Source: Candidatus Thalassarchaeum betae (GTDB taxonomy: Archaea; Thermoplasmatota; Poseidoniia; Poseidoniales; Thalassarchaeaceae). Taken from it: a stretch of DNA of 63,577 nt. The translations under genes and the position numbers were made by a program. Of this stretch, positions 6,786-48,066 are shown piece by piece. Below the pieces are notes generated by a model, which saw only the letters and a list, made by a program, of their open reading frames with translations, was not told the DNA's origin and made no database searches. The stretch's first letter is position 1, and the number at the start of each line of letters is the position of its first letter. The DNA lies in NCBI GenBank assembly GCA_003193925.1, contig PSPG01000009.1, forward strand, positions 1-63,577, written 5' to 3'.

Positions 6786-6840
6786 CACCCATCACCGTCG
6801 TTCAGCCTGAAGGCTCAGCATCGCGCGATTTGACCGGCTG

Positions 6841-12997: not shown

Positions 12998-13089
12998 TGC
13001 AATTCGGCCCACTTGGACTGTATTTGAGGGTTCGCACGTAGCGTACGCACAAAACGTCGATTGAAACGCGGTCTGGGGCGAGGGGGAGG

Positions 13090-13163
13090 TGGACCCGACC
13101 GGATTTGAACCGATGACCACTCGGTTATGAGCCGAGCGCTCTAACCAACTGAGCTACGGGTCC
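13090..13163 (-). tRNA. tRNA with CAT anticodon, most likely tRNA-Ile2 (agmatidine-modified) rather than Met
   Basis: GGACCCG/CGGGTCC acceptor stem, CTCGG-CTCATAA-CCGAG anticodon arm, TTCAAAT T-loop. Resembles archaeal tRNA-Ile2. Confidence 0.93.
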
Positions 13164-13274
13164 CTGCACTCCCTCCGGTGCTTTGCGAAATGAACCTTGT
13201 CTTCATGCCCCGGACACGCCCAGCACCGCGCCGCGCTCTCAACCTTGAAGCACGGAGCCCGCACGTGAGGGGGC

Positions 13275-14825
13275 ATGGCGAAGCTTTGGGTGATGTTCTT
13301 CACATCGCTTCTCCTTGTCTCGGCGATGAACTTCTACGCTGTGGTAAGGGAACCAGACATGATAGAGATTGACGAGATACGGAACTACCCTCGAGAGACG
13401 GTGAAGATTGAGGGTGTGCTTACCAGCTACATCCGCGATCCGTACGGGGAGGGTGCCGACAGGATAGACCTGCAGGTGCAGGAGGTCGACGGGCATTCGG
13501 TCGCCAAGGTGCGCTGGAACGTGGATTGGAACAACGATATCCCCCCGATCGGCACGGTGGTCACCGTAGAGGGGGAGGTGTCGGAATGGAATGGCAGGAT
13601 ATGGCTGCAGTCGAACGGTTACGGCGCCATAGTGGCCAAGGGCGAAGTCATAGAGTTCACCGAGACGAAGTTGGTGGAGGTCGGGCAGAACCCGGAAGCC
13701 TTCGCCAACATGTCGTTAACGATAGACGGGTGGCTAAGCGAGTCCCTCGCTCCTGACGTCACCTACCACTCGCTGTACCTGATGGATAACCAGGTCTACG
13801 GCGGCGCCGACCACCTGCTGTACATGCAGGTCGAGGGACGCGTCATGGAGTGGGTCGAAGCCGGCAGCCACGTCGTCGTCAACGGCTGGTTGCAGTTCGA
13901 CGAGCGCTCCTACAGATGGAGGATCCTAGTCCAAGCCACCGGAGTAGAGGTGCTCTCACAGGGCGAGACCGTCTACCTCGACTGGGAGACCGAGCCGTAC
14001 ACCCTAACCTATGAGGTAGGTAAACTGGTCATCGTGGATGGCACTGTGGTGAATGACGGCGATGAGTGGTGGATCCTCGGAGATGCCCCGACCGACCGAC
14101 TCTGCATGCTGCCCTCCCCCGATGACCTCGAGAACGATATCTCAGGGCAGTCTGGCGATTGGGGCGGCAGGCTCGCATGGTCGACCGACGAGGCCGAGGT
14201 CTGCCTCGACAGGGGATACGTCGAGGCACTGCAACACCCTGCAGGGCAGTTCGGCGACGACATCACCTCGATGAAGGAGGTCGTCGAAGATCCCTTCGCA
14301 TACATCGGCAACAGCTACCAGTTCGAGGGTTGGATCACCGATCCGATCTCGCCGGACTACGACAAGGGCTACGTCGGCGACGGTCCGGGTTACTACGATC
14401 GCGAGACGAAACTCAGGATTGAATTCGTGGGAGAGCACGTTGAGTGGATCGAGGCCGACCAGGCGATTCGGTTCAACGCCACCGTGCTGTGGTCGGAGGG
14501 GGAGGGCAGGATCGTCCTCGAGGCGCGCTCCTGGTTGCTCGGCGAGGCTCCGGACCCCTCGGTACTGAACTGGGGCGACGGTTACAACTCATGGAAGTGG
14601 GACATCGGCAAGCTCGTGCGGATCACCGGCGAAGCGGAGATGGACGAGGACGGCGGCCAGTGGATTTCCCGCTCTGGCTCCGATGAGAGGGTGTGCCTGC
14701 TGGGTGACGGCAGCGAGGCCAGCCAGCAGGAGCAGATCGGCGAGCCCATCGACTGGGTCGGCCGACTTACCATGACTGAAGACTCGATTGACAACTCCGC
14801 TCAATTCTGCATCGACATCCGATGA
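13275..14825 (+). CDS. Membrane-anchored exported protein with about five tandem OB-fold-like repeats
   Basis: N-terminal TM. Recurrent V.I.G..(S/T) starts and G..V.V.G....W/F.G segments, e.g. PPIGTVVTVEGEVSEWNG and EAGSHVVVNGWLQF. Confidence 0.7.
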   Translation: MAKLWVMFFTSLLLVSAMNFYAVVREPDMIEIDEIRNYPRETVKIEGVLTSYIRDPYGEGADRIDLQVQEVDGHSVAKVRWNVDWNNDIPPIGTVVTVEGEVSEWNGRIWLQSNGYGAIVAKGEVIEFTETKLVEVGQNPEAFANMSLTIDGWLSESLAPDVTYHSLYLMDNQVYGGADHLLYMQVEGRVMEWVEAGSHVVVNGWLQFDERSYRWRILVQATGVEVLSQGETVYLDWETEPYTLTYEVGKLVIVDGTVVNDGDEWWILGDAPTDRLCMLPSPDDLENDISGQSGDWGGRLAWSTDEAEVCLDRGYVEALQHPAGQFGDDITSMKEVVEDPFAYIGNSYQFEGWITDPISPDYDKGYVGDGPGYYDRETKLRIEFVGEHVEWIEADQAIRFNATVLWSEGEGRIVLEARSWLLGEAPDPSVLNWGDGYNSWKWDIGKLVRITGEAEMDEDGGQWISRSGSDERVCLLGDGSEASQQEQIGEPIDWVGRLTMTEDSIDNSAQFCIDIR

Positions 14826-14834
14826 GGTGATCCC

Positions 14835-16490
14835 TTGGACCCCATGGTTGTCGACTTCGGGTGGCTGATTGGCTCCTACCTGATTGGCATCATGCTGGGT
14901 TGCCTGACCGGGCTGATTCCCGGCTTCCACGTGAACAACGTGGCTCTGATCGCTCTGAGCCTCTCTCCGGTGGCCGTAGCCGTAGGGGTCCCGTTGGACG
15001 CGGTCGCTGGCATCATCGTGGCCTGCGGCACCGTCCACACATTCCTCAACTACATCCCGAGCGCCCTGATCGGCGCGCCGGATGACAACATGGCGCTCGC
15101 TCTCCTGCCCGGACACAGGATGCTGATCTCCGGGCAGGCCGCGCAAGGAGTGGCTTACTCCGCGCGAGGCTCGCAGATGGGCATGCTGATGTCAATACCG
15201 CTGCTCATCGTCGCAAGGCTGCTGTTCGGAGAGGATCCCGGGCTCGGGCTGTACGAGTCGAGTCGTGACGTCCTGCCTTGGCTGCTGCTCATCATCTCGA
15301 TATTCCTTATCATGACCGAGACGACTAGGCTGCCTTGGCCCGACTGGGCGCAGAGGCTGACCGGGAAACTGGTGATTCCGCTGCCGCGGAAGATCGAGTT
15401 CAACATACCCGTTGGAAAACTCAACATCCACCGCAGGTGGGAGAATCTGGACCTGAGGCTCGGCTCCAGCTCAAGGACCGCGGGCATGCTGGCGGCGACG
15501 TTCTTCTTCCTTCTGACCGGGTTCTACGGCTGGGCTGTGTTCGAGTTGCCCGGCCGCTCTCCAATCGGCATGCCCTCGGCCACCCTGCTGTTCCCCGGGC
15601 TGGTGGGCCTGTTCGGATTAGCGAACCTGATCGACATCTACGTCACCACCTCGGAGATTCCCCCTCAGGAGGCGAACTGGGAGATGCCCCCGATGAAGCC
15701 CCTCGCAATACCCACCTTCCTATCGGCGGTCGTCTCGTCCGTGATGGCCATCCTGCCGGGGATGACCGCCGCCCAAGCCACCGTGGTGGTGATGAGCATG
15801 CGCAACTTATGGGGTCGCCTGACCGACCCTGACTACATCCCGGCTGACTTCGAGCATGGGATGGAGCCGGGCTTCGTGCCGTACGCCTCCCCCTTGGACC
15901 TCGACGACCTCGACGAGCTCTCTGACGAGGAACGAGAGATCTTCGGCGAGGCACTGACCGAGGCGGGGGTGAGCCCAGACCTCGACCTGGGTGCGCAGAG
16001 CCAGCAGCAGGACCTCGAGGTCATCGCCGTGCTGTCCTCGGTGAACACCGCTGTCACAGTCATGGTCCTCGGGTTCCTGTACATGGTCGGCAGGCCTCGC
16101 TCGGGTGCCGCACTGGCTCTCAACATGATGTACCCGATAGACATGTGGAACACCGTCGAGCCGCCGGCTGACTTCATCCGCCTGCTCGGCATCACGATCG
16201 CCTCGGGGCTGTTCGCAGTCCCCGTGATGATCAAGGTCGGCAAGGCGATGCTCAGGATGCACGAGATCGTCCCGCTGAGGACAGTGGTGATCTCGGTCAC
16301 CGGATTCATCTCGATACTCGTCTGGCTATCCACCGGATGGATAGGATTGGGGGTTCTGATCATCGGCACTGGGATGGGTCTGATGCCACCCCGTATAGGC
16401 ATCAGGCGCAGCCACGCGATGGGCATCATCCTAGTCCCAATCATGATTTACACCTTCGCTCGAGAATTCGACGCATTCGGCTTCATTTGA
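14835..16490 (+). CDS. TctA-like (DUF112) tripartite tricarboxylate transporter-family permease
   Basis: G.LTGLIPGFHVN, HTFLNYIPS..IGAPD, LLPGHRML..G, RSG, G..RSHAMG motifs. TTG start with GAGGTGA SD overlapping the upstream stop. Confidence 0.88.
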   Translation: MDPMVVDFGWLIGSYLIGIMLGCLTGLIPGFHVNNVALIALSLSPVAVAVGVPLDAVAGIIVACGTVHTFLNYIPSALIGAPDDNMALALLPGHRMLISGQAAQGVAYSARGSQMGMLMSIPLLIVARLLFGEDPGLGLYESSRDVLPWLLLIISIFLIMTETTRLPWPDWAQRLTGKLVIPLPRKIEFNIPVGKLNIHRRWENLDLRLGSSSRTAGMLAATFFFLLTGFYGWAVFELPGRSPIGMPSATLLFPGLVGLFGLANLIDIYVTTSEIPPQEANWEMPPMKPLAIPTFLSAVVSSVMAILPGMTAAQATVVVMSMRNLWGRLTDPDYIPADFEHGMEPGFVPYASPLDLDDLDELSDEEREIFGEALTEAGVSPDLDLGAQSQQQDLEVIAVLSSVNTAVTVMVLGFLYMVGRPRSGAALALNMMYPIDMWNTVEPPADFIRLLGITIASGLFAVPVMIKVGKAMLRMHEIVPLRTVVISVTGFISILVWLSTGWIGLGVLIIGTGMGLMPPRIGIRRSHAMGIILVPIMIYTFAREFDAFGFI

Positions 16491-16577
16491 GCCTCAGTGA
16501 CGCGTTTATTTCATTCTGAAAGGTAGTGCAACACTTATCTCACACATCCCCGTGTGCGCGCGTAGAGAGTGCATACC

Positions 16578-19343
16578 ATGAACCGCAACAAATCGATAGC
16601 ATTGATGCTCACAGGAATAATACTGGTCAGCCTGAACATGTTTATCTTGACCGGAGTCGTGTCAAGTAATGTCCAAGCCGGCGTCGAGGACCTGATTGTC
16701 GACGGGAGGGACGAGGCTTCTGATTGGGAGGACGAAGAGTGGCTCGTCCAGACCAGCGAGAGAGTCTACTTCGCCTACAACTTGACGAATCAGGATGCTA
16801 GCCTCAACGATGAAATCGCCGTGTTTGAGAAGGTGGGACCGTTCATCTACGCCGTCACGACGACCAAGGAGATTCTTGACTTCGACGCTGACGCGGGCAC
16901 GATCACATACTCCGAGTACGACTCATTCGAATGGTGCGAAAACTGCACATGGACGGATGATGACGGCAACGAACACGCATCGGTCTCGGGTGAGACCAAC
17001 CTGACCAACGCCAACATCCTGTGGAACACCCAGAGGATGGCCGGATTAGCAACTGCAATCACCTACGGCGAGATCTTCGCCAAGGCCGGCTTCGCCCAGC
17101 AGATGCAGATCAACGACCTGCAGAACAGGGCGCCCAGCATCTGGGCCGCCGAGTACGCAGAGACGCTGATTGCAGGTGCTGCTGCGCAGATTAACTCAAC
17201 GGGCATCGACATGCCCACTGCTGAAGCGATGGCCCCGGCGGCCGTGCTCAGGGGGGCCTACGACGGCTGGCTCGCCCAGAGCGGTGCGAGTGACGCCAAC
17301 CCCGACTTCGCCAGTTACGCCGACGTCATACTGTACAGCGCCGTCGACCCGTCTACGGGATCCTGCATAGCCCTGATAGGTGACTCCGCCTGCAAGGATG
17401 GCAGTACGTCACTCCATCCAGACCACGGTATCGGCCATATGCTGGTGGCAGGGATGGGTGAGCCGAGCGAGGCCACGACGCCGGTACGAGCGGCCCTGTA
17501 CGGATACTCCGGTGCGAGTGCTGAGGAAATGGCTGCGATTGACTGGGCCGTCTACGCCATGGCCGGCACCAACTTCGTCATGATGGGCGGTGGGGAAGAC
17601 CTTGACTCGATTGACGATTGGCGAGAGCGCCTGGTTGAGGTCAGCGGGGTCGACATCGCGAACCCCGTCGCCTTGAACAACGTGCTCTTCGGCACTGAGG
17701 AGTCCAATGAAATCGGGCAGATTTCCGACGGGATGCTCTCGGAGAGCGACTTCCAAGGAATCCCGCTCTTCGGCGTAGCCCTGTTCCTTCTGGGCGCTCA
17801 GGGGGATGCGTTCAGCACGATGGTGTCGTACAGTATCGGGCTGACCCAACTGCTCGGCCTGGCCGACTGGGGAGGCGAATGGATCGGCATGCTCGGCACA
17901 CCTCGTGAATTCCCGATGATCCTCGTGGGGGGATCAGGTGCAATGGACGCCGACCAGTGGTGGATGATCTCGTTCTGCGGCGTGGAGCCCCTTGCGGGAG
18001 GTTACCTCTCCATCGGCCTCAACAGGGGCGACTACGAGGGTACTGTGGACCTGCCCCCCGAGAAGTGCCTCGAGATAGAATACACCTCGGACTATGCCCT
18101 GACCGGCGACTTCGCCACCGAGTTCATCTACGCCGAGTTCTCTGGAGTGACGCTTCCGAGGGGTTCCGAAGGACCCGAGATGGGGGGTGTCGAGTCGGTG
18201 TGGGACGATGCCTATGTCGCAGGCCTCTACGGCATCTCGGAGAGCGAGGCCTCCGCCCTCAGGAGTTGGGTCAAGGACCTCATGTTCGAGCAGGTGATCG
18301 GAGCGCTGCTGGCCTTCCAGTACGGTGCCTCGGCCTGGACCACCCAGTCAATCAACAACTGGCTGTACGGCTGGAGCGACTCGGTTCTGACTGGACTCTA
18401 CGGGGAGGAAAACAGCTGGGTCAAACTTGAGACCAACGAGACCTACTACGGTTCAGGCGGCAAGAGCACCGGCGACTTCTCGGTCTATGTGATGAGTATT
18501 CCTTCGAGTGCGGATGACTTGGGAACCGCCGACCACGCCCTCATGCAGGGCTACATCAACTCTGACGGAGACGGGCTGTGCGACTTCAAGCTCGACGCTG
18601 ACGGCAACGCCGAGTACGCAGTCGAGTGCGAGGCCAACGAGACCTACGGCATGACGGAGCACCTACCGTGGAGAGCCCCCCACAACGAAAAGAGAGTGTA
18701 TGGCCTGCTCTCAGACCATGTAGGGAATTCCAACACCGAGATCACTGGAACCATAGGAGGCATCGCAAATGCGGATGAGCCATTCAGCGTCAATCTAGTT
18801 GGGTACGCCATTGCACAGACCGAGGTCGGAGATACGGTGACCTACAAGGGAATCGAGATGGTCGAGCATCACATCGAGTTGGACCCTGCTGAGAACCAAA
18901 TCCAAGCCAAGCTGATTGGATTTAATCTTGGTCATGTCGCGGTGCTACCCGGCGCTCTGCCGATCTACTTCGGCTCGACTGTCGACATCAAGGTGGAGCC
19001 GGTGACCAACGTCGCCATGTACGGCAAGTCGGTATCTACGTTCTACCTCGACCTCAGATGGGCGGGTGCGATGAACCCGGACTTCAGCGCGTCCTATGTC
19101 CAGCCTGTATTCGAGATCCACACCCTCAGCGAGATCGGTGATGATGATGCTGCCTCGTTCAAGTGCACCGTCATAGACCACATGGGCACTATGTGGTGGA
19201 CCGACTTCGGTGGCGAAGGCGACTGCGAGCTCGAGGCCCTGACAACCTTCTCCTACATCGCTGCGGCGCTCTATGTCGCCGGCATCGGCCTGCTCGCCTA
19301 CGGCGGGATGGGGATTGCTGCGGCCTCTAGAAAGATAGAGTAG
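16578..19343 (+). CDS. CD36/scavenger receptor class B-like protein with two terminal TM helices and a large internal insertion
   Basis: YFAYNLTN..EKVGPFIY..K....GTITYSEYDSFEW, TNANIL, TQSINNWLYGWSDSVL and IKVEPVTN occur in CD36-family order. TM helices at both ends. Alternative GTG start at 16569. Confidence 0.65.
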   Translation: MNRNKSIALMLTGIILVSLNMFILTGVVSSNVQAGVEDLIVDGRDEASDWEDEEWLVQTSERVYFAYNLTNQDASLNDEIAVFEKVGPFIYAVTTTKEILDFDADAGTITYSEYDSFEWCENCTWTDDDGNEHASVSGETNLTNANILWNTQRMAGLATAITYGEIFAKAGFAQQMQINDLQNRAPSIWAAEYAETLIAGAAAQINSTGIDMPTAEAMAPAAVLRGAYDGWLAQSGASDANPDFASYADVILYSAVDPSTGSCIALIGDSACKDGSTSLHPDHGIGHMLVAGMGEPSEATTPVRAALYGYSGASAEEMAAIDWAVYAMAGTNFVMMGGGEDLDSIDDWRERLVEVSGVDIANPVALNNVLFGTEESNEIGQISDGMLSESDFQGIPLFGVALFLLGAQGDAFSTMVSYSIGLTQLLGLADWGGEWIGMLGTPREFPMILVGGSGAMDADQWWMISFCGVEPLAGGYLSIGLNRGDYEGTVDLPPEKCLEIEYTSDYALTGDFATEFIYAEFSGVTLPRGSEGPEMGGVESVWDDAYVAGLYGISESEASALRSWVKDLMFEQVIGALLAFQYGASAWTTQSINNWLYGWSDSVLTGLYGEENSWVKLETNETYYGSGGKSTGDFSVYVMSIPSSADDLGTADHALMQGYINSDGDGLCDFKLDADGNAEYAVECEANETYGMTEHLPWRAPHNEKRVYGLLSDHVGNSNTEITGTIGGIANADEPFSVNLVGYAIAQTEVGDTVTYKGIEMVEHHIELDPAENQIQAKLIGFNLGHVAVLPGALPIYFGSTVDIKVEPVTNVAMYGKSVSTFYLDLRWAGAMNPDFSASYVQPVFEIHTLSEIGDDDAASFKCTVIDHMGTMWWTDFGGEGDCELEALTTFSYIAAALYVAGIGLLAYGGMGIAAASRKIE

Positions 19344-19440
19344 CGACGCTGTGTCTCAGTTCCCGCAATCAGCCGGCTACGCCGGCTGCGTGTCCGCGTG
19401 CACGAAGGGTTGAACCCATGTCGGCGGGCAGCCTCGCGCC

Positions 19441-22400
19441 ATGAGTGGTCGCTCTAGACGGGCCGCAGCGGCCCTCTCACTGGCCATCCTGGTGCTGACG
19501 TCGCTGTCGCCGGTTCTGATTGACGGGCTGAGCGAGACGACCCCTTCGAAAGACTCCTCCAGCCGCTCCACGGCCTGCTCGGCAGTCTGCATCAACGAGA
19601 TGATGCCGAACGCAGACGGCCTGGACCAAGGCGTGTTCCCGAACGGCGAGTGGGTCGAGCTATACAACTCCGGCTCGGTCGATGTCAGCTTGGAGAACTG
19701 GACTCTCGAGGACGTCGGAGGCTGGATACACCCCCTCGACTCTGGAACCTGGGTCGGCTTCGACCAGCTCACAGCGCCATACGTCCTGAGCGCAGGGACC
19801 TACGCTGTGATCGCCGAGAACGAGTTCGGCACCCTGCGCCTGAACAATGCCGGCGAGACCCTCCACCTGAAGAACGCCGGCGGCGGATTGGTGCACACAG
19901 TGACTTCCGGCGAGGCCTCTAACGGGGTCTCGAAGATACCGAATCCGTCCGATGCGACAGCAGACTGGATAGACTCGGAGGAGAACACCCCGGGAGCGGA
20001 GAACTCCGAGGCGACCGGTGGCGGTGAGGAGGGTTCGACGCCGATCTCGCTGACTCGGATCATGACCATGCCCTTCGATGCCGAGGTCACCGGCATGTAC
20101 GTCGATGCGAATGGCAACTTCTTCGTCAACGCGATGCATCCCGATGACAGCTACATGGATGCGACAGTTGGCGTCGTCAAGAGCGTCGACTGGAACAACC
20201 TGCCCGACAGCATCCCCGAACTGGCGCTTCCGGCGGACATAGCCGAGAGGACGAGCATCAGGCTCTCCTACGGCCAGTACCAGCACCTCATCCAGAATGG
20301 CGATGCGCTGTCCGAGGGCGGAGTTGCGGGAGGCATCTACTCCGCGGACGACGGGGAACTGCTCTTCGTCAGCGAGAGGCCGGACTTCAACGCCTTCGTC
20401 CCACTCAACCCCCAAGGCACCAGAGGCTATCTGTACACCACCTGGGAGGACCGCCCGGCCGGAATCAGCCAGATTCTGATCGAGTGGAACAGCGCGGCGA
20501 GCAGCTGGGACGTGCTCGGTGGGATGATGCGGGACCTCAGCGCGGTAAACGGCGGCTGGGTGCTGTGCTTCGGGACGATGAGCCCGTGGGGCACGCCGCT
20601 CGCCTCCGAGGAGCTGTACTTCGACGACACTGAGGACTGGAACGACCCGACTTACAGTTACCATTCAGATCAGGTGGAACTGGAGGACTACCTCGGTTAC
20701 TACCCCAACCCCTACGACTATGGCTACATCGTCGAGATCGAGAACCCAGCCACAGCCTCAGGCGACCTCGTCAAACACATGGCCATGGGTCGCTTCTCGC
20801 ACGAGAACGCGCAGGTGATGCCTGACGAGAGGACAGTCTACCTCTCTGACGACGGTTATGACACGGTGCTGTTCAAGTTCGTCGCAGAAACCGCAGGCGA
20901 CCTCAGTGCGGGTACGCTGTACGCTGCCAAAGTCACGCAGGACGACAGCGGCGACTCAGCCATCACCGGATTCGACGTCGAGTGGGTGATGCTCGCCTCA
21001 TCCTCCAATTCGGTCATAGGGACATGGGTTGACCAGTATGACGGTATTGCCGTCTCTGACTATGTCAATGGTCAGAACTCGTACATCACCGACTCCGAAA
21101 TCAACGACTGGGCCGAGGGGCGCTTGAACGATGACCTCGACGGTGATGGCACCATCGAGTCTGCCGCCGATAATAGGGTCGCCTTCCTAGAGTCGCGCAA
21201 GGCGGCCGCGGCCATCGGAGCAAGTGACGAGTGGAACAAAATGGAGGGGATCGTCTTCAATCCGAACGCGCCCGGCTACCTGTACCTCGCGATTTCGGAC
21301 GTTCGCTATGACATGAGCGACGGGCACGGTGACATCGACGTCTCGGAGAACCGCTGTGGCATCGTCTACAGGATGCCGGTCGGGGCGGGCTGGGACGTCA
21401 GTAGGATCGAGCCCGCAATAGTTGGCGGATCATACTCGAGCGGAGCCTCGCCCGACCAGTGCGATGCGAACAACATCGCCGGCCCGGACAACCTCGCCGT
21501 GCTCGACGACGGGCGGGTGCTCGTCGGAGAGGACACCGGCAAGCACCAGAACAACATGGTATGGCTGTGGAAGCCGCCGGTCGAGCCGGTCGAGTGGGAC
21601 GGCGAGTACACGCTGAAGTTCACTCGAATCATGCCAGCCGAGGTCCCGGACAGGGACAACGACTGGCTCGAGATCGCCAACACCGGTGACTCGCCGGTCA
21701 GCCTCGCTGGCTGGACCATAGAGCGAATCCGCTCGACCGAGCCGTGGGTCTCCATGGTCAACGACCTGAGCATCGATGCCGGCACCTCGGTGGTCCTGAC
21801 TGAGAACCCAGCCAATCTGCTCGCCGACGGAGGCATCGTGGCGCTCGACGGCAACGTCGCGCTGAACAACATGCCGTGGCTTGTTGACTCGGGCAGCGCG
21901 CTACAACTCAAGGCGCCCGACGGAACGGTGGTCGATGCCATCGCCTTTGGGGGCGGCATCGCCGAAATCGACGGCTGGACGGGACCCGCGATCTCGGTGC
22001 CGGGCGATGGCTCACCGGGGCTCATCCTGATGCGCGGCTCGGGCTGCGGGGACTACCCTGACACCGACTCGGGCGCTGACTGGGAGGAGAGGTGGATTCG
22101 AATCGGGGCCTCGACCTTCTGCGACGGCGGGCACTTCACCACCGAGGCCGATTCGACTGCATCCGCCTCAATAGGCCCCGACACGGCCTTCAACGACCTG
22201 ATACAGTGGGTCGGCTCCGCTGAGGACTCGATCCACCTGCACGTCTACCAGTTCATGAGCCCGGACCTCACTCACGCCCTGCTGGACGCGATAGACAGCG
22301 GCGTGAGCGTCACCCTGTTGCTGGAGGAGGGCATCTTGGACGGTAGCAGCACCGTGAACAACCAGAGGGGCCATGCCCAGAGCCTCCACGACGCGGGAGC

Positions 22401-24021
22401 GACAGTGCTCTGGATGGAGGACCCCACCCTGATTAGCTCGCCCTACGCCTACATCCACAGCAAAGTGGCGGTCAGAGACGCCGAGAGCGTCTGGATATCA
22501 TCCGGCAACTGGAAGGACACGAGTGTGCCGCCCGACGCGGTGGGCAACCGCGAGTGGTCGATCATTCTGAACTCCGAGACTGCAGCCCAGCTAGTCCTGT
22601 CCCGGATGGCCTGGGACGAGAACCCCAACCACCTCCACATCAAGCCTCACGGCTCGCAGCACGCGCCGACCTTCGACTGGACCTTGGACGGGCCGGTGCA
22701 CGACGGCAGCACGACTGCGACGCCTTCCCACCAAGGACCGTTCAACGCCCAGCTGATGACCTGCCCGGACGACTGCGTAGACGGTATAGTCGCCATGATC
22801 GGCTCCGCCGACACCTCCATCGAGCTCTCGGTGCAGTACCTCGACCTCGACTGGTACTGGGGCTTCGGGGACAATCCGATCATCACCGCGCTGCACGAAG
22901 CGGCGCGTCGAGGCGTCAGCATCCGGCTGATGCTCAACGGCTACTACGCCGAGTGGGATGATGAGATCCGCGACACCATACACATGTTCAACACCGACTG
23001 GAACGCCACCGAGGGGCTGGATGCGACAGCGCGTCTGATGGCGTACTCGGACAGTATCGTGAAACTGCACAACAAGGGTGCGGTCATAGACGGTGAGAGT
23101 GTCCTCGTCGGCAGCATGAACTGGGGCTCGAGCGCGGCCCTGAGGAACCGGGAGATGGGCGTGCTGATCCACCACGAGGAACTGGCCTCCGACTACCTAA
23201 CCTCCTTCGAGGAGGACTGGAACCGCCTCGATCCGACCACCGACTCGGACGGCGACCTGATGCCCGACTGGTGGGAAGAGCAGTACGGGCTGAACCGGCA
23301 CTCAGCTGCCGTGCTGGGCACGGCACTCAGCGAGCAGTCTCTGGACCCTGACGGGGACGGGCTCGACAACCTGCAGGAATACCAGCTAGGTGGTGACCCA
23401 ATGAACAACGACACCGACGGCGACTGCATCACAGACGGCGAGGAGGTGGCATTCGCGCAGAGCGTGATGCGCTCGCCGTCGATTGCGATGACCTCGACAG
23501 ACGTAGACGAGAACGGCGTGCCTGACGGCGAGCAGTACGGCTGCAAGCCTGTCGACAACGGCACAGACGGGGTTGACGACGGCGTAGACGGCGGCGTAGA
23601 GGATGACGGCGATAGCGATGACGACGACGGAGGATTGCTCAATATCAGAGAGGACCCGCTGTCCCGGCCAGGTGCGACATTCCTGTTCTGGGTGATGGTG
23701 ATATCGGCGATCTGCCTAGCCCTAGCCGGAGCCTCGATGTTCCTACAGCCACGAAGGAGCACTGACGAGGTGCTTGTGGACGACTCGGGATACAGGTTCG
23801 ACGACCCCGAGGCCTCCAAGGCGATTCTCAAGGGGACCAGTTTCGACGAAGACGCCGAGGACGCCCGCGCTCGCACGAAGGGTCGCGACGACGGCTCGCA
23901 CGGAGCCATCAGGCTCGATGGCTTCGGCTTCGAATCGACAACGCGCGACGAGGTCCAGTGGATGCTGGACCAGGGGCGCACGATGGAAGAAGTGAGAGCC
24001 GAGCTCGGAGAGGAGGAGTGA
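19441..24021 (+). CDS. Surface multidomain enzyme: lamin-tail domain, PhoX alkaline phosphatase, lamin-tail domain, two phospholipase D (HKD) domains, Ca-binding DxDGD repeats, TM anchor
   Basis: INEMMPN..EWVELYN (LTD). CFGTMSPWGTPLASEE, GRFSHEN, PDNL, GEDT (PhoX). HSKVAVRD..SSGN and HNKGAVID..GSMN (PLD). Confidence 0.85.
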   Translation: MSGRSRRAAAALSLAILVLTSLSPVLIDGLSETTPSKDSSSRSTACSAVCINEMMPNADGLDQGVFPNGEWVELYNSGSVDVSLENWTLEDVGGWIHPLDSGTWVGFDQLTAPYVLSAGTYAVIAENEFGTLRLNNAGETLHLKNAGGGLVHTVTSGEASNGVSKIPNPSDATADWIDSEENTPGAENSEATGGGEEGSTPISLTRIMTMPFDAEVTGMYVDANGNFFVNAMHPDDSYMDATVGVVKSVDWNNLPDSIPELALPADIAERTSIRLSYGQYQHLIQNGDALSEGGVAGGIYSADDGELLFVSERPDFNAFVPLNPQGTRGYLYTTWEDRPAGISQILIEWNSAASSWDVLGGMMRDLSAVNGGWVLCFGTMSPWGTPLASEELYFDDTEDWNDPTYSYHSDQVELEDYLGYYPNPYDYGYIVEIENPATASGDLVKHMAMGRFSHENAQVMPDERTVYLSDDGYDTVLFKFVAETAGDLSAGTLYAAKVTQDDSGDSAITGFDVEWVMLASSSNSVIGTWVDQYDGIAVSDYVNGQNSYITDSEINDWAEGRLNDDLDGDGTIESAADNRVAFLESRKAAAAIGASDEWNKMEGIVFNPNAPGYLYLAISDVRYDMSDGHGDIDVSENRCGIVYRMPVGAGWDVSRIEPAIVGGSYSSGASPDQCDANNIAGPDNLAVLDDGRVLVGEDTGKHQNNMVWLWKPPVEPVEWDGEYTLKFTRIMPAEVPDRDNDWLEIANTGDSPVSLAGWTIERIRSTEPWVSMVNDLSIDAGTSVVLTENPANLLADGGIVALDGNVALNNMPWLVDSGSALQLKAPDGTVVDAIAFGGGIAEIDGWTGPAISVPGDGSPGLILMRGSGCGDYPDTDSGADWEERWIRIGASTFCDGGHFTTEADSTASASIGPDTAFNDLIQWVGSAEDSIHLHVYQFMSPDLTHALLDAIDSGVSVTLLLEEGILDGSSTVNNQRGHAQSLHDAGATVLWMEDPTLISSPYAYIHSKVAVRDAESVWISSGNWKDTSVPPDAVGNREWSIILNSETAAQLVLSRMAWDENPNHLHIKPHGSQHAPTFDWTLDGPVHDGSTTATPSHQGPFNAQLMTCPDDCVDGIVAMIGSADTSIELSVQYLDLDWYWGFGDNPIITALHEAARRGVSIRLMLNGYYAEWDDEIRDTIHMFNTDWNATEGLDATARLMAYSDSIVKLHNKGAVIDGESVLVGSMNWGSSAALRNREMGVLIHHEELASDYLTSFEEDWNRLDPTTDSDGDLMPDWWEEQYGLNRHSAAVLGTALSEQSLDPDGDGLDNLQEYQLGGDPMNNDTDGDCITDGEEVAFAQSVMRSPSIAMTSTDVDENGVPDGEQYGCKPVDNGTDGVDDGVDGGVEDDGDSDDDDGGLLNIREDPLSRPGATFLFWVMVISAICLALAGASMFLQPRRSTDEVLVDDSGYRFDDPEASKAILKGTSFDEDAEDARARTKGRDDGSHGAIRLDGFGFESTTRDEVQWMLDQGRTMEEVRAELGEEE

Positions 24022-25298
24022 TGTCCAAGGCCATCCACGACCTCGTGCGGGGGGTCGTGGACGGCTCCCTCTCCGATGACGAAGTAATCCACTGGCTGCG
24101 TGCCGTCTTTGAGGGCGGGCTCTCCGAGGGAGATACGATTGCCCTCACTGAGGCGATGAGAGACTCCGGTGAGGTCCTCGAGTGGGGGTCTGAGATTGCG
24201 AATCTGGTCGTCGACAAGCACTCGACTGGCGGCGTCGGCGACAAGGTGTCGATAGTGCTCGCGCCCGCTCTGGCCGCCTGCGGCCTGAGGGTCCCTATGA
24301 TCTCAGGGCGCGGACTGGGCCACACCGGGGGCACTCTGGACAAGTTGGGGAGCATCCCGGGGCTCAGTGTTGAGCGCTCGGCCGATGAGATACGTCAGCA
24401 GGTCGAGCGTCTCGGGGTCGCGATGGTCGGCCAGACGGACGCTCTGGTCCCCGCCGACCGCAGGATGTACGCTCTCAGGGATGTCACAGGCACTTTGGCA
24501 TCCATCCCGCTGATTACCTCGTCAATCGTCTCGAAAAAGGCTGCTGAGGGCCTGTCGGCCCTGATATTGGATGTCAAGTTCGGAAGAGCTGCGTTCATGG
24601 TCGAACGCGCCGACGCGGCCGAACTCGCGCGCTCTATGGTTGACGTGGCCAACGGCATGGGGGTATCGACCAAGGCGGTGCTGACCACGATGGATCAGCC
24701 CCTGGGCTGCGCGGTCGGAAACTCGCTGGAGGTGCTCGAGAGCGTCGAGACCCTGTGCGGTAACGGGCCGGAGGACCTCGAGGAACTGGTCTGCGTACAG
24801 GGAGGCCTCCTGCTGGAGGCCGCGGGGCTGGCGGACGGCATGCAGACCGGCGCCCTGATGATCCACGACAGCCTGCAGGACGGCTCGGCCCTCGAGTGCT
24901 TCCGTAAGATGGTAGAGGCGCAGGGCGGTGATGCCTCGATCCTCGAGAGCGATGCCTCGCTGATGAGGGGGCTCGGGCTGATGGATCCCGATCTGCTGAC
25001 CACCGAGCTGTGCGCGGGCGCCGATGGTTGGGTCGAGGACATCGATGCGATGGTGATAGCCGAGGCCTGCCTCGGTATGGGGGCTGGGCGCAAGGAACTG
25101 GGTGACGAGATCGACCGTGCGGTCGGTGCGATACTCGAGGTCCAGGTGGGAGACCGCCTCGAAGAGGGCGAGCCCTGGGTCGTCCTGTATCACCGCGATG
25201 AGGTAGCCCCGCAGACGCTGGAGGTCCTCTTGGGCGCAATCACCCTATCCGATGAAGAAGTGAAGCCGGTATCACGAATCGCGGAGATGATTGAATGA
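24021..25298 (+). CDS. deoA: Thymidine/pyrimidine-nucleoside phosphorylase
   Basis: DKHSTGGVGDK, SGRGLGHTGGTLDKL, YALRDVT, SIVSKK, DVKFG. ATG 24021 overlaps the upstream stop (TGATG). Confidence 0.93.
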   Translation: MSKAIHDLVRGVVDGSLSDDEVIHWLRAVFEGGLSEGDTIALTEAMRDSGEVLEWGSEIANLVVDKHSTGGVGDKVSIVLAPALAACGLRVPMISGRGLGHTGGTLDKLGSIPGLSVERSADEIRQQVERLGVAMVGQTDALVPADRRMYALRDVTGTLASIPLITSSIVSKKAAEGLSALILDVKFGRAAFMVERADAAELARSMVDVANGMGVSTKAVLTTMDQPLGCAVGNSLEVLESVETLCGNGPEDLEELVCVQGGLLLEAAGLADGMQTGALMIHDSLQDGSALECFRKMVEAQGGDASILESDASLMRGLGLMDPDLLTTELCAGADGWVEDIDAMVIAEACLGMGAGRKELGDEIDRAVGAILEVQVGDRLEEGEPWVVLYHRDEVAPQTLEVLLGAITLSDEEVKPVSRIAEMIE

Positions 25299-26365
25299 GG
25301 CTGAGGCACATCGACCGCATGCGGGCCATAGCCGTGCTGTGCATGGTCGAGGTCCACACTGCCGCGATCGTACCCCCGGAGGGAGTCACTGTGGGCCATC
25401 CCGCCGCCTTCGTCGCCGCCGCCATCGGCGGCATGGCCGCGCCGATGTTCATCGCCATCTCAGGCTGGGGGATCCACCTGAGCGCTACCCGCAGGGCAGC
25501 AGACCCCGAGCATGATGCGAACCGCTGGATTAGCTGGCTGCTGCCGCGAGTGCTCCTCCTGGGTCTGTGCCAACTGCTGGTCAACCTGCTACTAAACGCT
25601 GACCGAGGCGGCCGCTTCGAATGGCACACGCCAGGTGTGCTGACGCTGCTCGCCATCGCCGCCCTGCTGGCGCCGGCCCTGGTCCGGCTCTCCATGCGGA
25701 CGCGCGCTGCGCTGATGCTGCTGATGGTGGCAGCCCCGCTGGCAATCGGAGATGCCTCCGGGCCCGACTGGTCATGGTGGGAGAGAGTCGACTCACAGGG
25801 CGCCTCTGAGTGGCTGGCCCGACTCCTGTGGAACGGCACTTACCCGGCTGTGCCCTGGTTGGGCTACGTCCTGCTCGGCTCCATAATACACGACTTGGGC
25901 GAGCGGCCGGGGGTGCGAGAGAGGAACATCGCCATCGGGCTGGCTGCTACCACGGTCACCGTGTTCATCGCCGTCCTCGAGGACATAGACTGGGCGCTGA
26001 CCTCAGGGGACGCGGTCCTGACCTTCTTCCCCGCAAACACACCCTTCCTAATCGTCTCGGGGACATTCGTGCTGCTCGCACACAGACTGCTCGAGGGGGC
26101 TGAGTCGAGCGGTGGCGAGCCGGCCTTAGGCGACAGTCTGGCCGCTCTGGAGCCGGCAGGCCGGATCACGCTGACGATCTACGTCGCCCACTTCGCTGTG
26201 CTGGGGGCGGTGGCATCGCTGATGGAGGGTGAGGCAAGGCTCAATCTGGTCCCCGCATTCGCTCTGACCATCGCCCACACGCTGGTATGGATACCGCTGG
26301 CTGTCTGGCACCAGCGCCACATCCCTAACCTGTCATTCGAGGCGCTGTTGAGCAGAATCAACTAG
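25295..26365 (+). CDS. DUF1624 / HGSNAT-like membrane acyltransferase-family protein
   Basis: R..IDRMRAIAVLCM..VH, AAPMF...SG, YP.VPW.GY, G...LTIYVAH, multi-TM. ATGA overlap with deoA. Confidence 0.75.
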   Translation: MRLRHIDRMRAIAVLCMVEVHTAAIVPPEGVTVGHPAAFVAAAIGGMAAPMFIAISGWGIHLSATRRAADPEHDANRWISWLLPRVLLLGLCQLLVNLLLNADRGGRFEWHTPGVLTLLAIAALLAPALVRLSMRTRAALMLLMVAAPLAIGDASGPDWSWWERVDSQGASEWLARLLWNGTYPAVPWLGYVLLGSIIHDLGERPGVRERNIAIGLAATTVTVFIAVLEDIDWALTSGDAVLTFFPANTPFLIVSGTFVLLAHRLLEGAESSGGEPALGDSLAALEPAGRITLTIYVAHFAVLGAVASLMEGEARLNLVPAFALTIAHTLVWIPLAVWHQRHIPNLSFEALLSRIN

Positions 26366-29300
26366 GGTCCACGGCAATCGGGCCGAACCAGACCTCGACT
26401 TCCTCGTTCGAGGCCATGATGCGCACGTAGTGCGTGCCGTCGCCGGTGAAGGTGATGTTGGCCGAGCCCGGACCGACCTCGGGCGTACCCACCGAGATGC
26501 TGTACGGCCAGAGTTGGCTGTTATTACCCATGTCAGTCTGTCCGTAGTACACCATCAGGCTCGTGTTTGTGCCATTGTCGTAGACATCCCAGACTATCTG
26601 CGCTGCGCTGCTGGTGACGTTGGTCGAGGTTAGGTTGCGCAGTATGGCATCGTAGACGAAGAAGTCGCCGCGCAGCGGGTCGTCGACCCACACGGGCAAG
26701 TGGTCGAGGGCGTCGTAGGTCGCCTGCGTCAGCGGGAAACCCCATGCTGCGTGGTAGGGTGCGAGGTTGTAGCCGGTGGCGTTCGATAGATGCATGACCC
26801 ACGCGTTGAACTCCTCGACGTCCCCCCTCGGAACCTCGGCCGAAGGAAGCGTGTAGTAGACCGTCAATGCCTCGGTTATCGGACCCCAACCCCACTCCTC
26901 CTTCACAATGAGGAACGTGTCCAAGGCCACCCAGGTGGACCAGTTCGATATGTTCGAGCCGTCCTCGAAATATGCCCGTTGGGGGTTCGCTGGGCGCAGA
27001 TTTGGCGGATTGACGAGTTGCTCCATCAAGTAGACGCTGGCGAAGTTGCAACCGGTCTCCGTGGTTCCAGGCAGGGTGGAAGGCATCCACTGGTGGTTGT
27101 GACCGAGTTCATGGAACATACCCCAATCGCCGTTCTCGCTCATGTACGAGACGTTGACTACTCCCGCGACACTCAGGTCGTGCGCCATGAACGGGTAGCC
27201 GGAATGCATCCAGCCTGCGGAGATCTGAGCGTCGAAGACTGCCCTCTCGACCCTCGGCCATGGTGTGTAGCCGTAAATCTCGTGCTCCATCGCAAGCGCT
27301 TGGTCCCACCAGTCCATCAGGTCTTGGGGGTTGTCGAGATCCCTGATCTCGTGACTCGGCACAGTCAGGATGAACTGGCCGCTGCCGATCTCAGCCCACG
27401 GGGCTGGGTCGTGCCGGAACTGCTGCTGCCACTGGAATATGTCGGTCTCGCCGTGGATGTACCTCGGTGCCTTGACCGCGTTCGAGATGGTCACATCGAA
27501 GTCGCCCAGCGTCGAGCCGGCTTGGATTCCGAGGTATATCGGCCCGCCGAAGGCGTTGCCGACCTCCATCGTGGCGCTGTCGACGTACCACCAACGGGCA
27601 ATCTGCGGGTGCCTGTGTAACTGGCTCTTCCCCCACAGGCTGTCACTGTGGGCGCCGACCAGCACATAGGTTCCCGAGCCGACGATTCCGGGGGGCAGGG
27701 TCACGGTGACCACCTCGCCCGGTGCTGCGTACAGACCGGTGGTCATGCGCACGTGCGAGCGTGCGCCCGAGTAGCCGAAGTTACTGGGTAGGCCGCTCTG
27801 ATTGCCGTCGATGGAGAAGGTGCGGGTGATTCGCGTGGCGTTCGTCGGCACCTCACCTGGGAACTCAACGTGGCTCGGGTGTGCAGGCAGCTCGTTTGCC
27901 GGGAGGTTCTGAGTCAGAGAGGCCTCGACCCTCAGTATGGTGTCGGCCACCGGGTCCTCCCCTAGGTTGTGGCCGACGTTCTGCCAGAGGGTGCCGTACT
28001 GGATCACCGTCCAGCCGGTGGCGTTGACGACCTCGCGCAGAGGGACCCAGAAGCCGTGGAAGTCCAGAGCCACGACGCCAGTGCAGATAGAGAGGGTGGC
28101 GTCGGCAATGGCCGCGTCGGCCACCGATAGGGTCTGATTGTCGATGCGGTCCGCACGAATCGCCTCGATGGCGGCTTGAGGGCGGGTCAGCTCATGCGGT
28201 ACGACTCTGAAGTCGACGTTGTTGGAGCCCCAGGCGTCGGAGACGAACAGCCCCGTCGTCTTGGCGATCTTGTTGCCCGGGTAGTTGTGGGACACATCGC
28301 TGTTCGAGTAGGACCAGTACCAAGCGTGGCCGCCCATGATCAGGCCACCGCCAGCGAGCATGAAGTCGACGAGGTTCTGGTTGTCGGCATCGTCGTGGCC
28401 GTTCCAGAACTCGTCGAGCAGGCAGTCGATTCCAGATAGGTCGTCAGGGGTGACAGAGAGATGGACCGTATGCCCCTCGCCCTGCAACTCGTCCTCGAAG
28501 TCGTCGTACCCCGCACCGTAGGCCAGACCGACGTTGGCATTCTCGCCGCAGACCCATTCGACTCCCTGTAGCGAGAACGCGGTCTCCTTCGGGCCGGCGC
28601 CATCGACCCAGCTCTCATGGCCGTAGCCCAGCATCTTGCCGCGGCCGACGTGACTGGCTGAGATCACCGGGATGGTATCTCCGTAGCCGCTCTGGGTGAA
28701 GCCCACCGGGAATGCCCACTCGCCTATCGGCAGGATGGGCGAGGGCCAACCGCCCCAATTCGTGTTGCCCATTCCATGACGCAGGTCATCTTGGTCTGCT
28801 GTCAGATCATGCACTGCAATCCACAGGTTGAGTCCGGCCACGCCGCCGGTGTTGTTGGCCCAGATGGTGTACTGGGTCCAGTCGGCGCGCTCGTCAGGCG
28901 TCCCCTCGATGGTGCCGTTGGACAGCAGTGTGAGCCCGGACGGCAAAGGAGGGTCAACTTCCCAAGTCTCGATATCAGGGCCTTCATTGGTTGCGGGGAT
29001 GATGATGCTCTCGTTGGCCTTGAACGCGAACTCCGTGCCTGGCCACGAGATGGCGTCAGGCGGCAGGCTGGTCACCCTGAATTGGACAAGAGTAGAGGTG
29101 GTGCCGCCCGAGTTATTGGCCCAGATCCTGTGATAGGTCCACGGTTGCAAGTAGGTGGCAGACCCACTGATTACACCTGTGGAGAAATTGAACGAGAAGC
29201 CGAATGGGAGAGTCGGGTCGATCTCCCAGTAGTCCGGCGAGCCTCCCTCCCAAGTCGGGCTGATCTCTCCGATGTCGTCGCCCTCCCTGAGGTCGAACTG

Positions 29301-30329: not shown

Positions 30330-30394
30330 GAGGACTGTCGGGGGCCCGTCGATGAATAAGTGTGCGGAAGTCGTGCTCCCAAGGGGGAGCACGC

Positions 30395-47982: not shown

Positions 47983-47989
47983 AGTGAGA

Positions 47990-48066
47990 TGGTGGACGCT
48001 GGGGGATTTGAACCCCCGGCCCCCTGGTTGCAAACCAGGTGCTCTTCCAAGCTGAGCTAAGCGCCC
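47990..48066 (-). tRNA. tRNA-Ala(TGC), CCA encoded
   Basis: GGGCGCT/AGCGTCC acceptor stem with G3:U70, CCTGG-TTTGCAA-CCAGG anticodon arm. Confidence 0.97.

Follow-up and report, generated by a model that had tools for sequence, protein, structure and literature searches.

The stretch of DNA analysed here (hereafter the window) comprises 63,577 nucleotides (nt) of contig PSPG01000009.1 from Candidatus Thalassarchaeum betae (Poseidoniales, Marine Group II; assembly GCA_003193925.1), whose genome of 1.48 Mb is 92% complete. Six open reading frames (ORFs) on the plus strand fill positions 13275-26365 and include a candidate module for the use of extracellular DNA, which is the subject of this report. 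The block is bounded by a tRNA-Met gene (minus strand, 13088-13163) and by a convergent M60-peptidase gene (26358-30434), and TFIIB and STT3 genes lie close to it. The genes are labelled g1 (OB-repeat), g2 (TctA-like), g3 (CD36-like), g4 (LTD-PhoX-LTD-PLD), g5 (DeoA) and g6 (acyltransferase-3, AT3), with lengths given in amino acids (aa) and transmembrane abbreviated as TM:

13275-14825, plus strand: g1, 516 aa, OB-like repeat protein with one N-terminal TM helix
14835-16490, plus strand: g2, 551 aa, TctA/DUF112 permease, polytopic
16569-19343 (ORF; probable ATG at 16578), plus strand: g3, 924 aa, CD36-like protein
19441-24021, plus strand: g4, 1526 aa, surface-anchored LTD-PhoX-LTD-PLD protein
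23958-25298 (ORF; real ATG at 24021), plus strand: g5, 425 aa, DeoA-type enzyme
25295-26365, plus strand: g6, 356 aa, acyltransferase-3/HGSNAT-like protein, polytopic

The first two genes are spaced by 9 nt, and gaps separate g2 from g3 (16491-16568) and g3 from g4 (19344-19440). The stop codon of g4 shares one base with the start of g5 (TGATG), and g5 and g6 overlap by four bases (ATGA). A preliminary description of the block had reported six consecutive plus-strand genes with overlapping stop and start codons in the last three, and the ORF list and these junctions agree with it. Its domain assignments also proved essentially right by Pfam and NCBIfam, the OB label of g1 being the weakest of them.

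Gene order and gene loss in Poseidoniales

Synteny was compared at 27 Poseidoniales loci that carry the PLD gene and belong to three families, four of the loci ending at a contig edge. The order g1-TctA-PLD-deoA on a single strand is present in 23 of the 27, and the remaining four are cut by contig ends. The preliminary description had named a lack of linkage in relatives as the observation that would speak against a joint system; for these four genes the reverse was found, across all three families. All six genes occur in the same order at 14 of 14 loci from three small-genome genera, two of these loci being cut by contig ends before g1/g2. The CD36-like gene stands between TctA and PLD at each of these 14 loci and at none of the 13 loci of other genera or families. 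Meanwhile, the AT3 gene follows deoA at the same 14 loci and at one further locus, where it is 39% identical.

The reciprocal situation was found in four genomes of two further genera (G099, G172, G263 and G311; 89-94% complete). All four retain the upstream neighbour up1, while the PLD core, g1, deoA and TctA have no match in any of them (0/4 each). Three show the order up1, CD36-like, AT3, and the two of these loci that are long enough continue with M60 and SHMT; the fourth shows up1 and the CD36-like gene. At loci L078, L079 and L080 AT3 comes directly after the CD36-like gene. Since g3 and g6 are kept where g1, g2, g4 and g5 were lost and are absent from other PLD-bearing genera, the latter four (set A) and the former two (set B) are separate sets, which vary independently. 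Set B is confined to five small-genome genera of the family and is inserted at the same spot, and g6 travels with the CD36-like gene rather than with set A. The single six-gene system of the preliminary description thus has to be given up: the CD36-like and AT3 genes are retained in the four genomes without g1, TctA, PLD and deoA and are missing from 13 of 13 other PLD loci. Loss of set A around a retained g3 needs two separate deletions. This co-loss, which may amount to one or two events only, is the best evidence here that the genes of set A depend on each other.

Several side observations concern the same loci. The M60 gene is present in the genera that have the CD36-like and AT3 genes and absent from other genera of family f1, among the loci checked. 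The block is flanked by giant surface proteins, namely the M60-like peptidase (26358-30434, minus strand; 1358 aa, with He_PIG domains) and the product of an ORF of over 2262 aa that contains STT3 (3-6788, minus strand). Locus L036, from the single-contig genome G026 of family f3, holds a BaxI-like gene and then a DIOX_N/2OG-Fe(II) oxygenase gene between PLD and deoA (13401-16477), and the stop of the oxygenase gene (14190-15161) overlaps the start of deoA (15158-16477) by 4 nt. An oxygenase coupled to thymidine phosphorylase could act on the freed pyrimidine base, which is pure speculation. Between up1 and g1 of the same locus lies a gene with HD and HD_assoc_2 domains (3707-5014, minus strand), divergent from g1. 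On our reading it is dNTP-triphosphohydrolase-like and would add a nucleotide-metabolism gene to the locus in f3. The LTD-PLD gene of L036 (8465-13404) comes out as two frames (553 and 1123 aa) that overlap, possibly through a frameshift or an assembly error.

The proteins of the block

The g4 protein consists of a signal peptide, a first LTD, PhoX, a second LTD, a PLD core with two HKD motifs and an Asp-rich TSP3-like linker, with a TM helix (residues 1409-1437) and some 90 aa of cytoplasmic tail at its C-terminus. Pfam matches LTD in two stretches (9.1e-30), PhoX (2.8e-29) and PLDc_2 in two stretches (2.4e-38). The domains map to the window as follows:

19567-19908, plus strand: LTD1, residues 43-156, the best Pfam LTD stretch
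20038-21573, plus strand: PhoX cassette, residues 200-711, delimited by alignment of forms with and without PhoX
21643-22020, plus strand: LTD2, approximately residues 735-860, the second Pfam LTD stretch, with inferred boundaries
22078-23250, plus strand: PLD core with two HxKxxxxD...GSxN motifs

The motif residues of the PLD core are H1006/K1008/D1013 and H1210/K1212/D1217, and across 40 aligned sequences from the phylum both motifs keep their H, K, D, S and N without or almost without exception. An AF2 model of the core (pLDDT 91.4, pTM 0.92) has the bilobed alpha/beta fold of the PLD superfamily. When a profile of the core was searched against the PDB, the top match was SpPLD (7e0m, 5.5e-23), followed by Nuc (1e-20), Zucchini (1e-14), NucT and the poxvirus nicking-joining enzyme (3e-13 each) and the PLD3/4 exonucleases (2e-12 and weaker), with the lipid enzymes Streptomyces PLD (1.5e-8) and PLD1 (6e-8) further down. 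The authors of the SpPLD study stress its nuclease-like loops and leave the substrate unsettled (PMC8004604). Foldseek with the model likewise returned 7e0m first and then PLD4 and PLD3 bound to single-stranded DNA, among 178 PDB matches at E <= 0.001, with TM-scores of about 0.66-0.69 to PLD3/4 and 7e0m at 14-18% identity. The core, which ranks by profile with Nuc, NucT, Zucchini and PLD3/4 above the lipid PLDs, thus appears to lean towards the nucleases.

LTD-PLD proteins were found in 223 of the 301 Thermoplasmatota genomes. Most relatives across the order carry the motif (A/S)RST(A/E)C(S/T)G.(V/I)C(I/L)NE after the signal peptide (window 19441-19600), possibly a processing site or a disulfide motif. 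A twin-arginine export signal was considered for g4 and dropped, the RR of the window protein not being conserved in relatives. Among 20 LTD-PLD loci outside the order, a rhomboid protease gene stands immediately 3' of LTD-PLD in nine (the Thermoplasmatota loci L043, L044, L051, L052, L055, L056, L059, L060 and L061), often with overlapping ends, and a signal-peptide peptidase gene is beside LTD-PLD in five. These neighbours suggest that intramembrane proteolysis acts on the C-terminally anchored PLD protein and releases it by shedding.

PhoX is an in-frame insertion in the Gly/acidic linker between LTD1 and LTD2. It matches PF05787 with 103.1 bits (cut-off 24) over profile positions 152-454 of 515, and a profile search of the PDB found Pseudomonas fluorescens PhoX (3zwu/4amf) at 4e-11, which phmmer with the whole of g4 had missed. 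The Cys of an FQNC motif and the Glu of a HENA motif, which we take to be metal or active-site residues of PhoX, are aligned and invariant in nine fused or stand-alone PhoX sequences. In family f3, PhoX is a separate gene of 738 aa located elsewhere, and the PhoX part of g4 is 61-68% identical to this stand-alone form. Within the family, PhoX was found in 15 of 81 genomes; three genera have it fused (6/7, 2/7 and 3/7 genomes), and two others have it as a stand-alone gene. At least three changes are required to explain the PhoX-less forms on a tree of LTD2-PLD, and one of these forms is sister to a PhoX-bearing form with branch lengths of 0.03-0.05. The architecture PhoX+LTD+PLD was retrieved as 24 clusters from 5.8 billion proteins, all at 68% identity or more and with automatic names only. 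Besides these, protein P0254 (1443 aa) combines PhoX and LTD with two amidohydrolase domains and is 69% identical over 48% of g4 residues 200-1270, so the LTD-PhoX module is also fused to another catalytic domain.

The product of g5 scores 453.4 bits against PRK05820 (cut-off 269) and 440.2 bits against TIGR02644 (cut-off 409), falls below the cut-offs of the specific thymidine phosphorylase and pyrimidine-nucleoside phosphorylase equivalogs, and contains three domains found by Pfam. By these matches it is classified as a DeoA-type thymidine/pyrimidine-nucleoside phosphorylase, predicted to be cytoplasmic. A Shine-Dalgarno-like run (GGAGAGGAGGAG) precedes its start, which overlaps the g4 stop, and the arrangement supports translational coupling of deoA to g4. 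Elsewhere, the genome has a DeoC-family match (122.8 bits), a PNP/UDP-family gene and a PiT/PHO4 carrier (369 bits, in a frame of 729 aa). Searches of this 92%-complete genome found no thymidine kinase, PstS, PhoU or SNase, which is no proof of their absence; since thymidine kinase is among them, DeoA is more likely to be catabolic than to serve salvage.

The g1 protein combines a single TM helix near its N-terminus (residues 4-24) with four OB-like repeats. The window protein itself matches Pfam OB with an E value of 0.0037, below the cut-off, while PF01336 is matched by 9 of 20 g1 homologues (best 3.7e-6). In an atlas search the nearest named clusters were OB-fold proteins, and a bacterial OB+DUF4131 cluster scored only 0.84 and is no more than a lead. 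Its neighbour g2 matches PF01970 (TctA; E 5.2e-39, 134.5 bits against a cut-off of 28.9) and has several hydrophobic segments. The 92%-complete genome yielded no TctC (PF03401; TctB was not searched), and the upstream partner is an OB-repeat protein instead; therefore g2 is filed as TctA-like and not as a member of the TTT (TctABC) family. By the g1 profile, full-length relatives of g1 occur in the order only (17 of 21 genomes of family f1 and 41 of 42 of family f3), and nine other Thermoplasmatota genomes have OB proteins (207-233 aa) that match it weakly. At all nine of these loci outside the order the next gene, on the same strand, is TctA-like. In addition, 63 further archaeal loci with upstream sequence of 700 nt or more were taken from a search with a TctA-like alignment, and by the criterion applied 38 of them have a g1-like OB frame directly upstream; three more were excluded solely by too long an overlap of the stop-to-stop frames.

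A complex predicted from g2 and residues 1-240 of g1 scored 0.41 (runs 0.41, 0.47 and 0.41; best of three controls 0.00), with at least 86% of contacts agreeing between runs and a partner pLDDT of at least 72, which is weakly consistent with an interaction. The calibration set comprised 157 solved complexes, of which 116 passed, and 215 mismatched pairs, of which 2 passed; at scores of 0.60 or lower only 18 of the solved complexes pass, together with both mismatches. A low pass errs more often than not unless the proposed pair was likely beforehand. A comparable pair is known from Methanococcus maripaludis. There the OB-fold protein MMJJ_13020 and the adjacent TctA-like MMJJ_13030 are both essential for natural transformation, as is the lipid-anchored thermonuclease MMJJ_16440, and a second methanogen likewise cannot take up DNA without its TctA-like homologue (PMC10133366). 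By analogy, g1-g2 are best read as a DNA-binding anchor and a channel, a reading that the preliminary description did not include. We propose g1 as a DNA- or oligonucleotide-binding partner of the permease and g2 as an importer of DNA or of DNA breakdown products.

In g3, Pfam CD36 (PF01130) matches residues 49-127 only (E 3.9e-9, 35.9 bits; cut-off 26.5). Counted from the ATG at 16578, TM helices lie at residues 5-32 and 887-916, and about 430 aa of the protein form a helical insertion. The only PDB profile match is LIMP-2, in two collinear segments (E 0.2), and with a poor model (pLDDT 58) the ten top Foldseek matches are all SCARB2/LIMP-2/CD36 (E 0.009-0.09, TM-scores of about 0.1/0.23). 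The likeness to CD36, LIMP-2 and SCARB proteins thus lies in a Pfam score above cut-off, a hairpin topology with terminal TM helices and the top or only PDB matches; g3 differs from that family in matching 77 of 463 profile positions, in its insertion of about 430 aa and in its archaeal host. We found no paper linking CD36 to Thalassarchaea in the literature searched, and the CD36-like gene carries automatic annotation only. Identity of g3 within the genus is 48-84%, compared with 71-94% for the neighbouring genes. The variability of the CD36-like proteins (in the window and at L023-L030, L063-L068 and L077-L080) looks as if it came from diversifying selection or from exchange of divergent alleles. 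We regard g3 as probably an independent, fast-diverging insertion. The other gene of set B, g6, matches Acyl_transf_3 (PF01757; 7e-20, 71.8 bits, cut-off 31) and HGSNAT_cat (8e-16), the latter presumably the former DUF1624, and has several hydrophobic segments.

Transcription units and RNA-library evidence

The spacers of the block were read by eye and by alignment across relatives, and the following candidate elements were noted:

13239-13250, plus strand: candidate TATA-like promoter of g1, an AT-richer box (CAACCTTGAAGC) about 30 nt 5' of the g1 ATG
16541-16553, plus strand: candidate own promoter of g3, box CAACACTTATCTC, about 30 nt 5' of the g3 ATG
19370-19388, plus strand: candidate terminator or stability element of the g3 unit, hairpin CAGCCGGC-TAC-GCCGGCTG 3' of the g3 stop
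19406-19418, plus strand: candidate promoter of g4-g5-g6, box GAAGGGTTGAACC, 23-35 nt 5' of the g4 ATG

Within the g3 box CTTAT is invariant at seven loci from three genera, and within the g4 box CGAAGGGTT is invariant at six loci from three genera. The g3 hairpin is kept within the genus, with a compensatory A>G / T>C change in L065. Boxes of the same type also precede the GARS gene and a TSP3 gene in the window. The guess of three transcription units in the preliminary description fits the conserved boxes located about 30 nt upstream of g1, g3 and g4, and the units would be g1-g2, g3 and g4-g5-g6. The combination of box and hairpin is what might be expected of g3 as a self-contained insertion. 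A scan for sigma-70 promoters and intrinsic terminators was discarded, as its counts were near the shuffled expectation and the model is not applicable to archaea. Elsewhere in the window (47973-48066), ARAGORN predicts overlapping tRNA-Gln (plus strand) and tRNA-Ala (minus strand) genes, and Rfam backs the minus-strand tRNA only.

Contigs from four RNA-library runs, belonging to four studies, were also mapped. Pieces with at least 99% identity fall on g1, g3, g4 and g5, and g3 is covered in all four runs. One contig starts at 16577, although contigs are no proof of a transcript start, and another (19250-19462) spans the g3/g4 spacer with only 22 nt on the g4 side.

Proposed use of extracellular DNA and alternative explanations

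On balance, we consider it probable that g1, g2, g4 and g5 constitute a four-gene module using extracellular DNA and that g3 and g6 are two unrelated surface genes inserted into it. DNA as the substrate, the cargo of the permease and the nutritional purpose are what we infer from the observations above. The g4 protein would be tethered at the cell surface by its C-terminal helix and a long acidic linker of calcium-binding type; its PLD core would cut nucleic acid, and PhoX would strip phosphate from the ends or from released nucleotides, the freed phosphate being taken up through the PiT carrier. The single-pass g1 protein with its four OB repeats might hold DNA or oligonucleotides at the membrane beside g2, which might import these or their products. 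DeoA, presumably translated from the same message as g4, would split thymidine or deoxyuridine into base and deoxyribose-1-phosphate, and the DeoC-family aldolase encoded elsewhere in the genome could process the sugar further. The preliminary description had outlined a DNA route of this kind. Its core is supported, in that a surface phosphodiesterase and a phosphomonoesterase are fused and coupled to deoA, but not all six genes belong to it.

A number of observations weigh against this proposal. The co-loss is limited to two genera, possibly to one lineage, and the wider neighbourhood (up1, up2 and SHMT) is collinear within the order, so that gene order alone is weak evidence. In family f3, BaxI-like and 2OG-Fe(II) oxygenase genes intervene between PLD and deoA. 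Outside Poseidoniales, deoA or g1 lies near PLD in none of 20 loci, and PLD, deoA and PhoX are within the available flanks of none of 82 OB/TctA loci; only inside this one order are PLD and deoA linked with the OB/TctA pair. The surface proteins are acidic throughout (D+E 14-18%, K+R 4-7%), which is unusual for DNA binders. Foldseek does not separate nucleases from lipid PLDs, the E values being close (4.8e-22 to 5e-18), and the best PDB match of the PLD core, 7e0m, is deposited as a phospholipase. RNA contigs can neither rank genes, show transcript ends or co-regulation, nor exclude DNA carry-over. As for the permease, bacterial TctA proteins carry carboxylates, and an alignment scan of the genome collection with the TctA-like protein returned no Methanococcus among the 80 best loci. 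That a TctA-like protein transports DNA is put forward as a hypothesis by the authors of the M. maripaludis study and still has that standing (PMC10133366).

The M. maripaludis proteins also lead to another explanation, namely that the locus serves natural transformation and not feeding: g1-g2 would import DNA for recombination, the PLD enzyme would process incoming DNA, for example to one strand, and deoA and PhoX would be bystanders. An OB protein, a TctA-like protein and an anchored nuclease are all essential for transformation there (PMC10133366), and the OB/TctA pair is widespread without a catabolic neighbour. The fusion of PhoX into the nuclease, the translational coupling of deoA and the loss of deoA together with g1, g2 and PLD nevertheless point to consumption of DNA, and we consider transformation as the sole purpose improbable. 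The two purposes are compatible and do not exclude each other; in Escherichia coli, homologues of competence genes are reportedly needed for growth on DNA (Palchevskiy and Finkel). It is about equally unlikely that the genes have no joint function and are merely collinear, with LTD-PLD as a general surface phosphodiesterase acting on another polymer or on the cell's own envelope and deoA serving ordinary pyrimidine metabolism. Such a situation would agree with the wide occurrence of LTD-PLD in the phylum, usually without OB/TctA or deoA nearby, with the adjoining rhomboid protease genes, with the collinearity of up1, up2 and SHMT, and with the unrelated genes between PLD and deoA in f3. It leaves aside that two gene pairs were co-lost around a retained CD36-like gene, that g4 and deoA overlap, that PhoX was inserted specifically into the g4 protein, and that g1-g2 are conserved as a pair beyond the order.

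Lipid as the substrate was the other option raised by the preliminary description. In its outline lipid particles are captured by the CD36-like protein, and headgroup and phosphate are stripped off by PLD and PhoX; extended to more of the block, the model would have vesicles captured as well and organic acids or head-group products imported by the TctA-like permease. The adjacency of the CD36-family gene to PLD, the deposition of 7e0m as a phospholipase, and the automatic name given by the Joint Genome Institute to the g4 type ('phosphatidylserine / phosphatidylglycerophosphate / cardiolipin synthase-like enzyme') are in its favour, and genes of fatty-acid degradation are reported for Marine Group II (MGII; PMC6461757). 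But the CD36-like gene is kept in 4/4 genomes without PLD and absent from 13/13 PLD loci of other genera and from 20/20 loci outside the order. This independent variation removes the phyletic basis for a CD36 protein feeding PLD, and g3 has its own promoter-like box and hairpin. By sequence profile the lipid PLDs rank well below the nucleases (1.5e-8 or weaker, compared with 1e-20 to 2e-12), and no role would be left for deoA or the OB protein. Moreover, a PLD cut of a phospholipid would leave the phosphate on membrane-bound phosphatidic acid, presumably a poor substrate for a soluble PhoX, while a cut of DNA would yield phosphomonoester ends and nucleotides. DNA is therefore favoured as a probable substrate over lipid, which we regard as very unlikely.

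Dissolved DNA is a large seawater pool of organic phosphorus, nitrogen and carbon, and MGII archaea are abundant and uncultured, their substrates being inferred from genomes. A conserved, surface-anchored protein that unites nuclease and phosphatase, and that is linked with DeoA and with a candidate pair for importing DNA or nucleosides, would offer a concrete and testable route for the use of DNA by MGII. The locus would likewise provide separate evidence for the view, as yet unproven, that TctA-like proteins of archaea carry DNA or pieces of it through the membrane. Whether PhoX is present or absent in frame is a natural marker that could be mapped against phosphate concentration in ocean metagenomes, and the archaeal CD36-family gene is a separate curiosity. 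A broader scenario can be put forward only tentatively and is rather doubtful as a whole. In it MGII, the surface ocean's most abundant planktonic archaea, would feed on dissolved DNA with a dedicated machine, in which a tethered PLD nuclease with a plug-in PhoX delivers to an OB/TctA-like channel, an archaeal counterpart of ComEC for nutrition; PhoX would be gained and lost in frame according to phosphorus supply, and the CD36-family gene at this hot spot would encode a fast-evolving surface protein, a scavenger of lipids or a receptor for viruses. In the literature searched we found no paper linking MGII or Poseidoniales to an extracellular nuclease, phospholipase, PhoX or CD36. The PhoX cassette, the coupling of DeoA, the pattern of co-loss and the CD36-like insertion are new here.

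The proposed system can be compared with several known ones. With Nuc, NucT, Zucchini, PLD3 and PLD4, its closest relatives by sequence profile, g4 shares the HKD chemistry and with PLD3/4 also the two-HKD single-chain fold; in contrast to these nucleases it is predicted from its sequence to be extracellular, multi-domain and membrane-tethered. In Bacillus subtilis YhcR, OB folds, a nuclease and a nucleotidase are said to be joined in one anchored protein; the enzyme families are unrelated, and the host here is an archaeon. Pseudomonas aeruginosa uses DNA as a nutrient by means of the extracellular DNase and alkaline phosphatase pair EddA/EddB (PMC3572637), whose enzyme families are again unrelated, whereas here PLD and PhoX are in one chain in an archaeal host. 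Among archaea, Haloferax volcanii requires the surface thermonuclease Hvo_1477, which carries a lamin-tail domain, to grow with DNA as its source of phosphorus (PMC3929857). Hvo_1477 resembles g4 in being archaeal and surface-attached with a lamin-tail-type domain; it is a lipoprotein of 327 aa with the staphylococcal-nuclease fold, while g4 has 1526 aa, a C-terminal anchor, the PLD fold and a fused PhoX. The M. maripaludis pair (PMC10133366) is alike in its adjacent single-TM OB protein and TctA-like permease (11 TM helices in MMJJ_13030), in a surface-anchored nuclease and in having no TctB/TctC partner, as TctC was not found in the host genome here. The present genes are likened to it by architecture and differ in the four OB repeats of g1 (516 aa), in a PLD-type nuclease encoded beside the pair, and in the attached PhoX and DeoA, the likely purpose being feeding.

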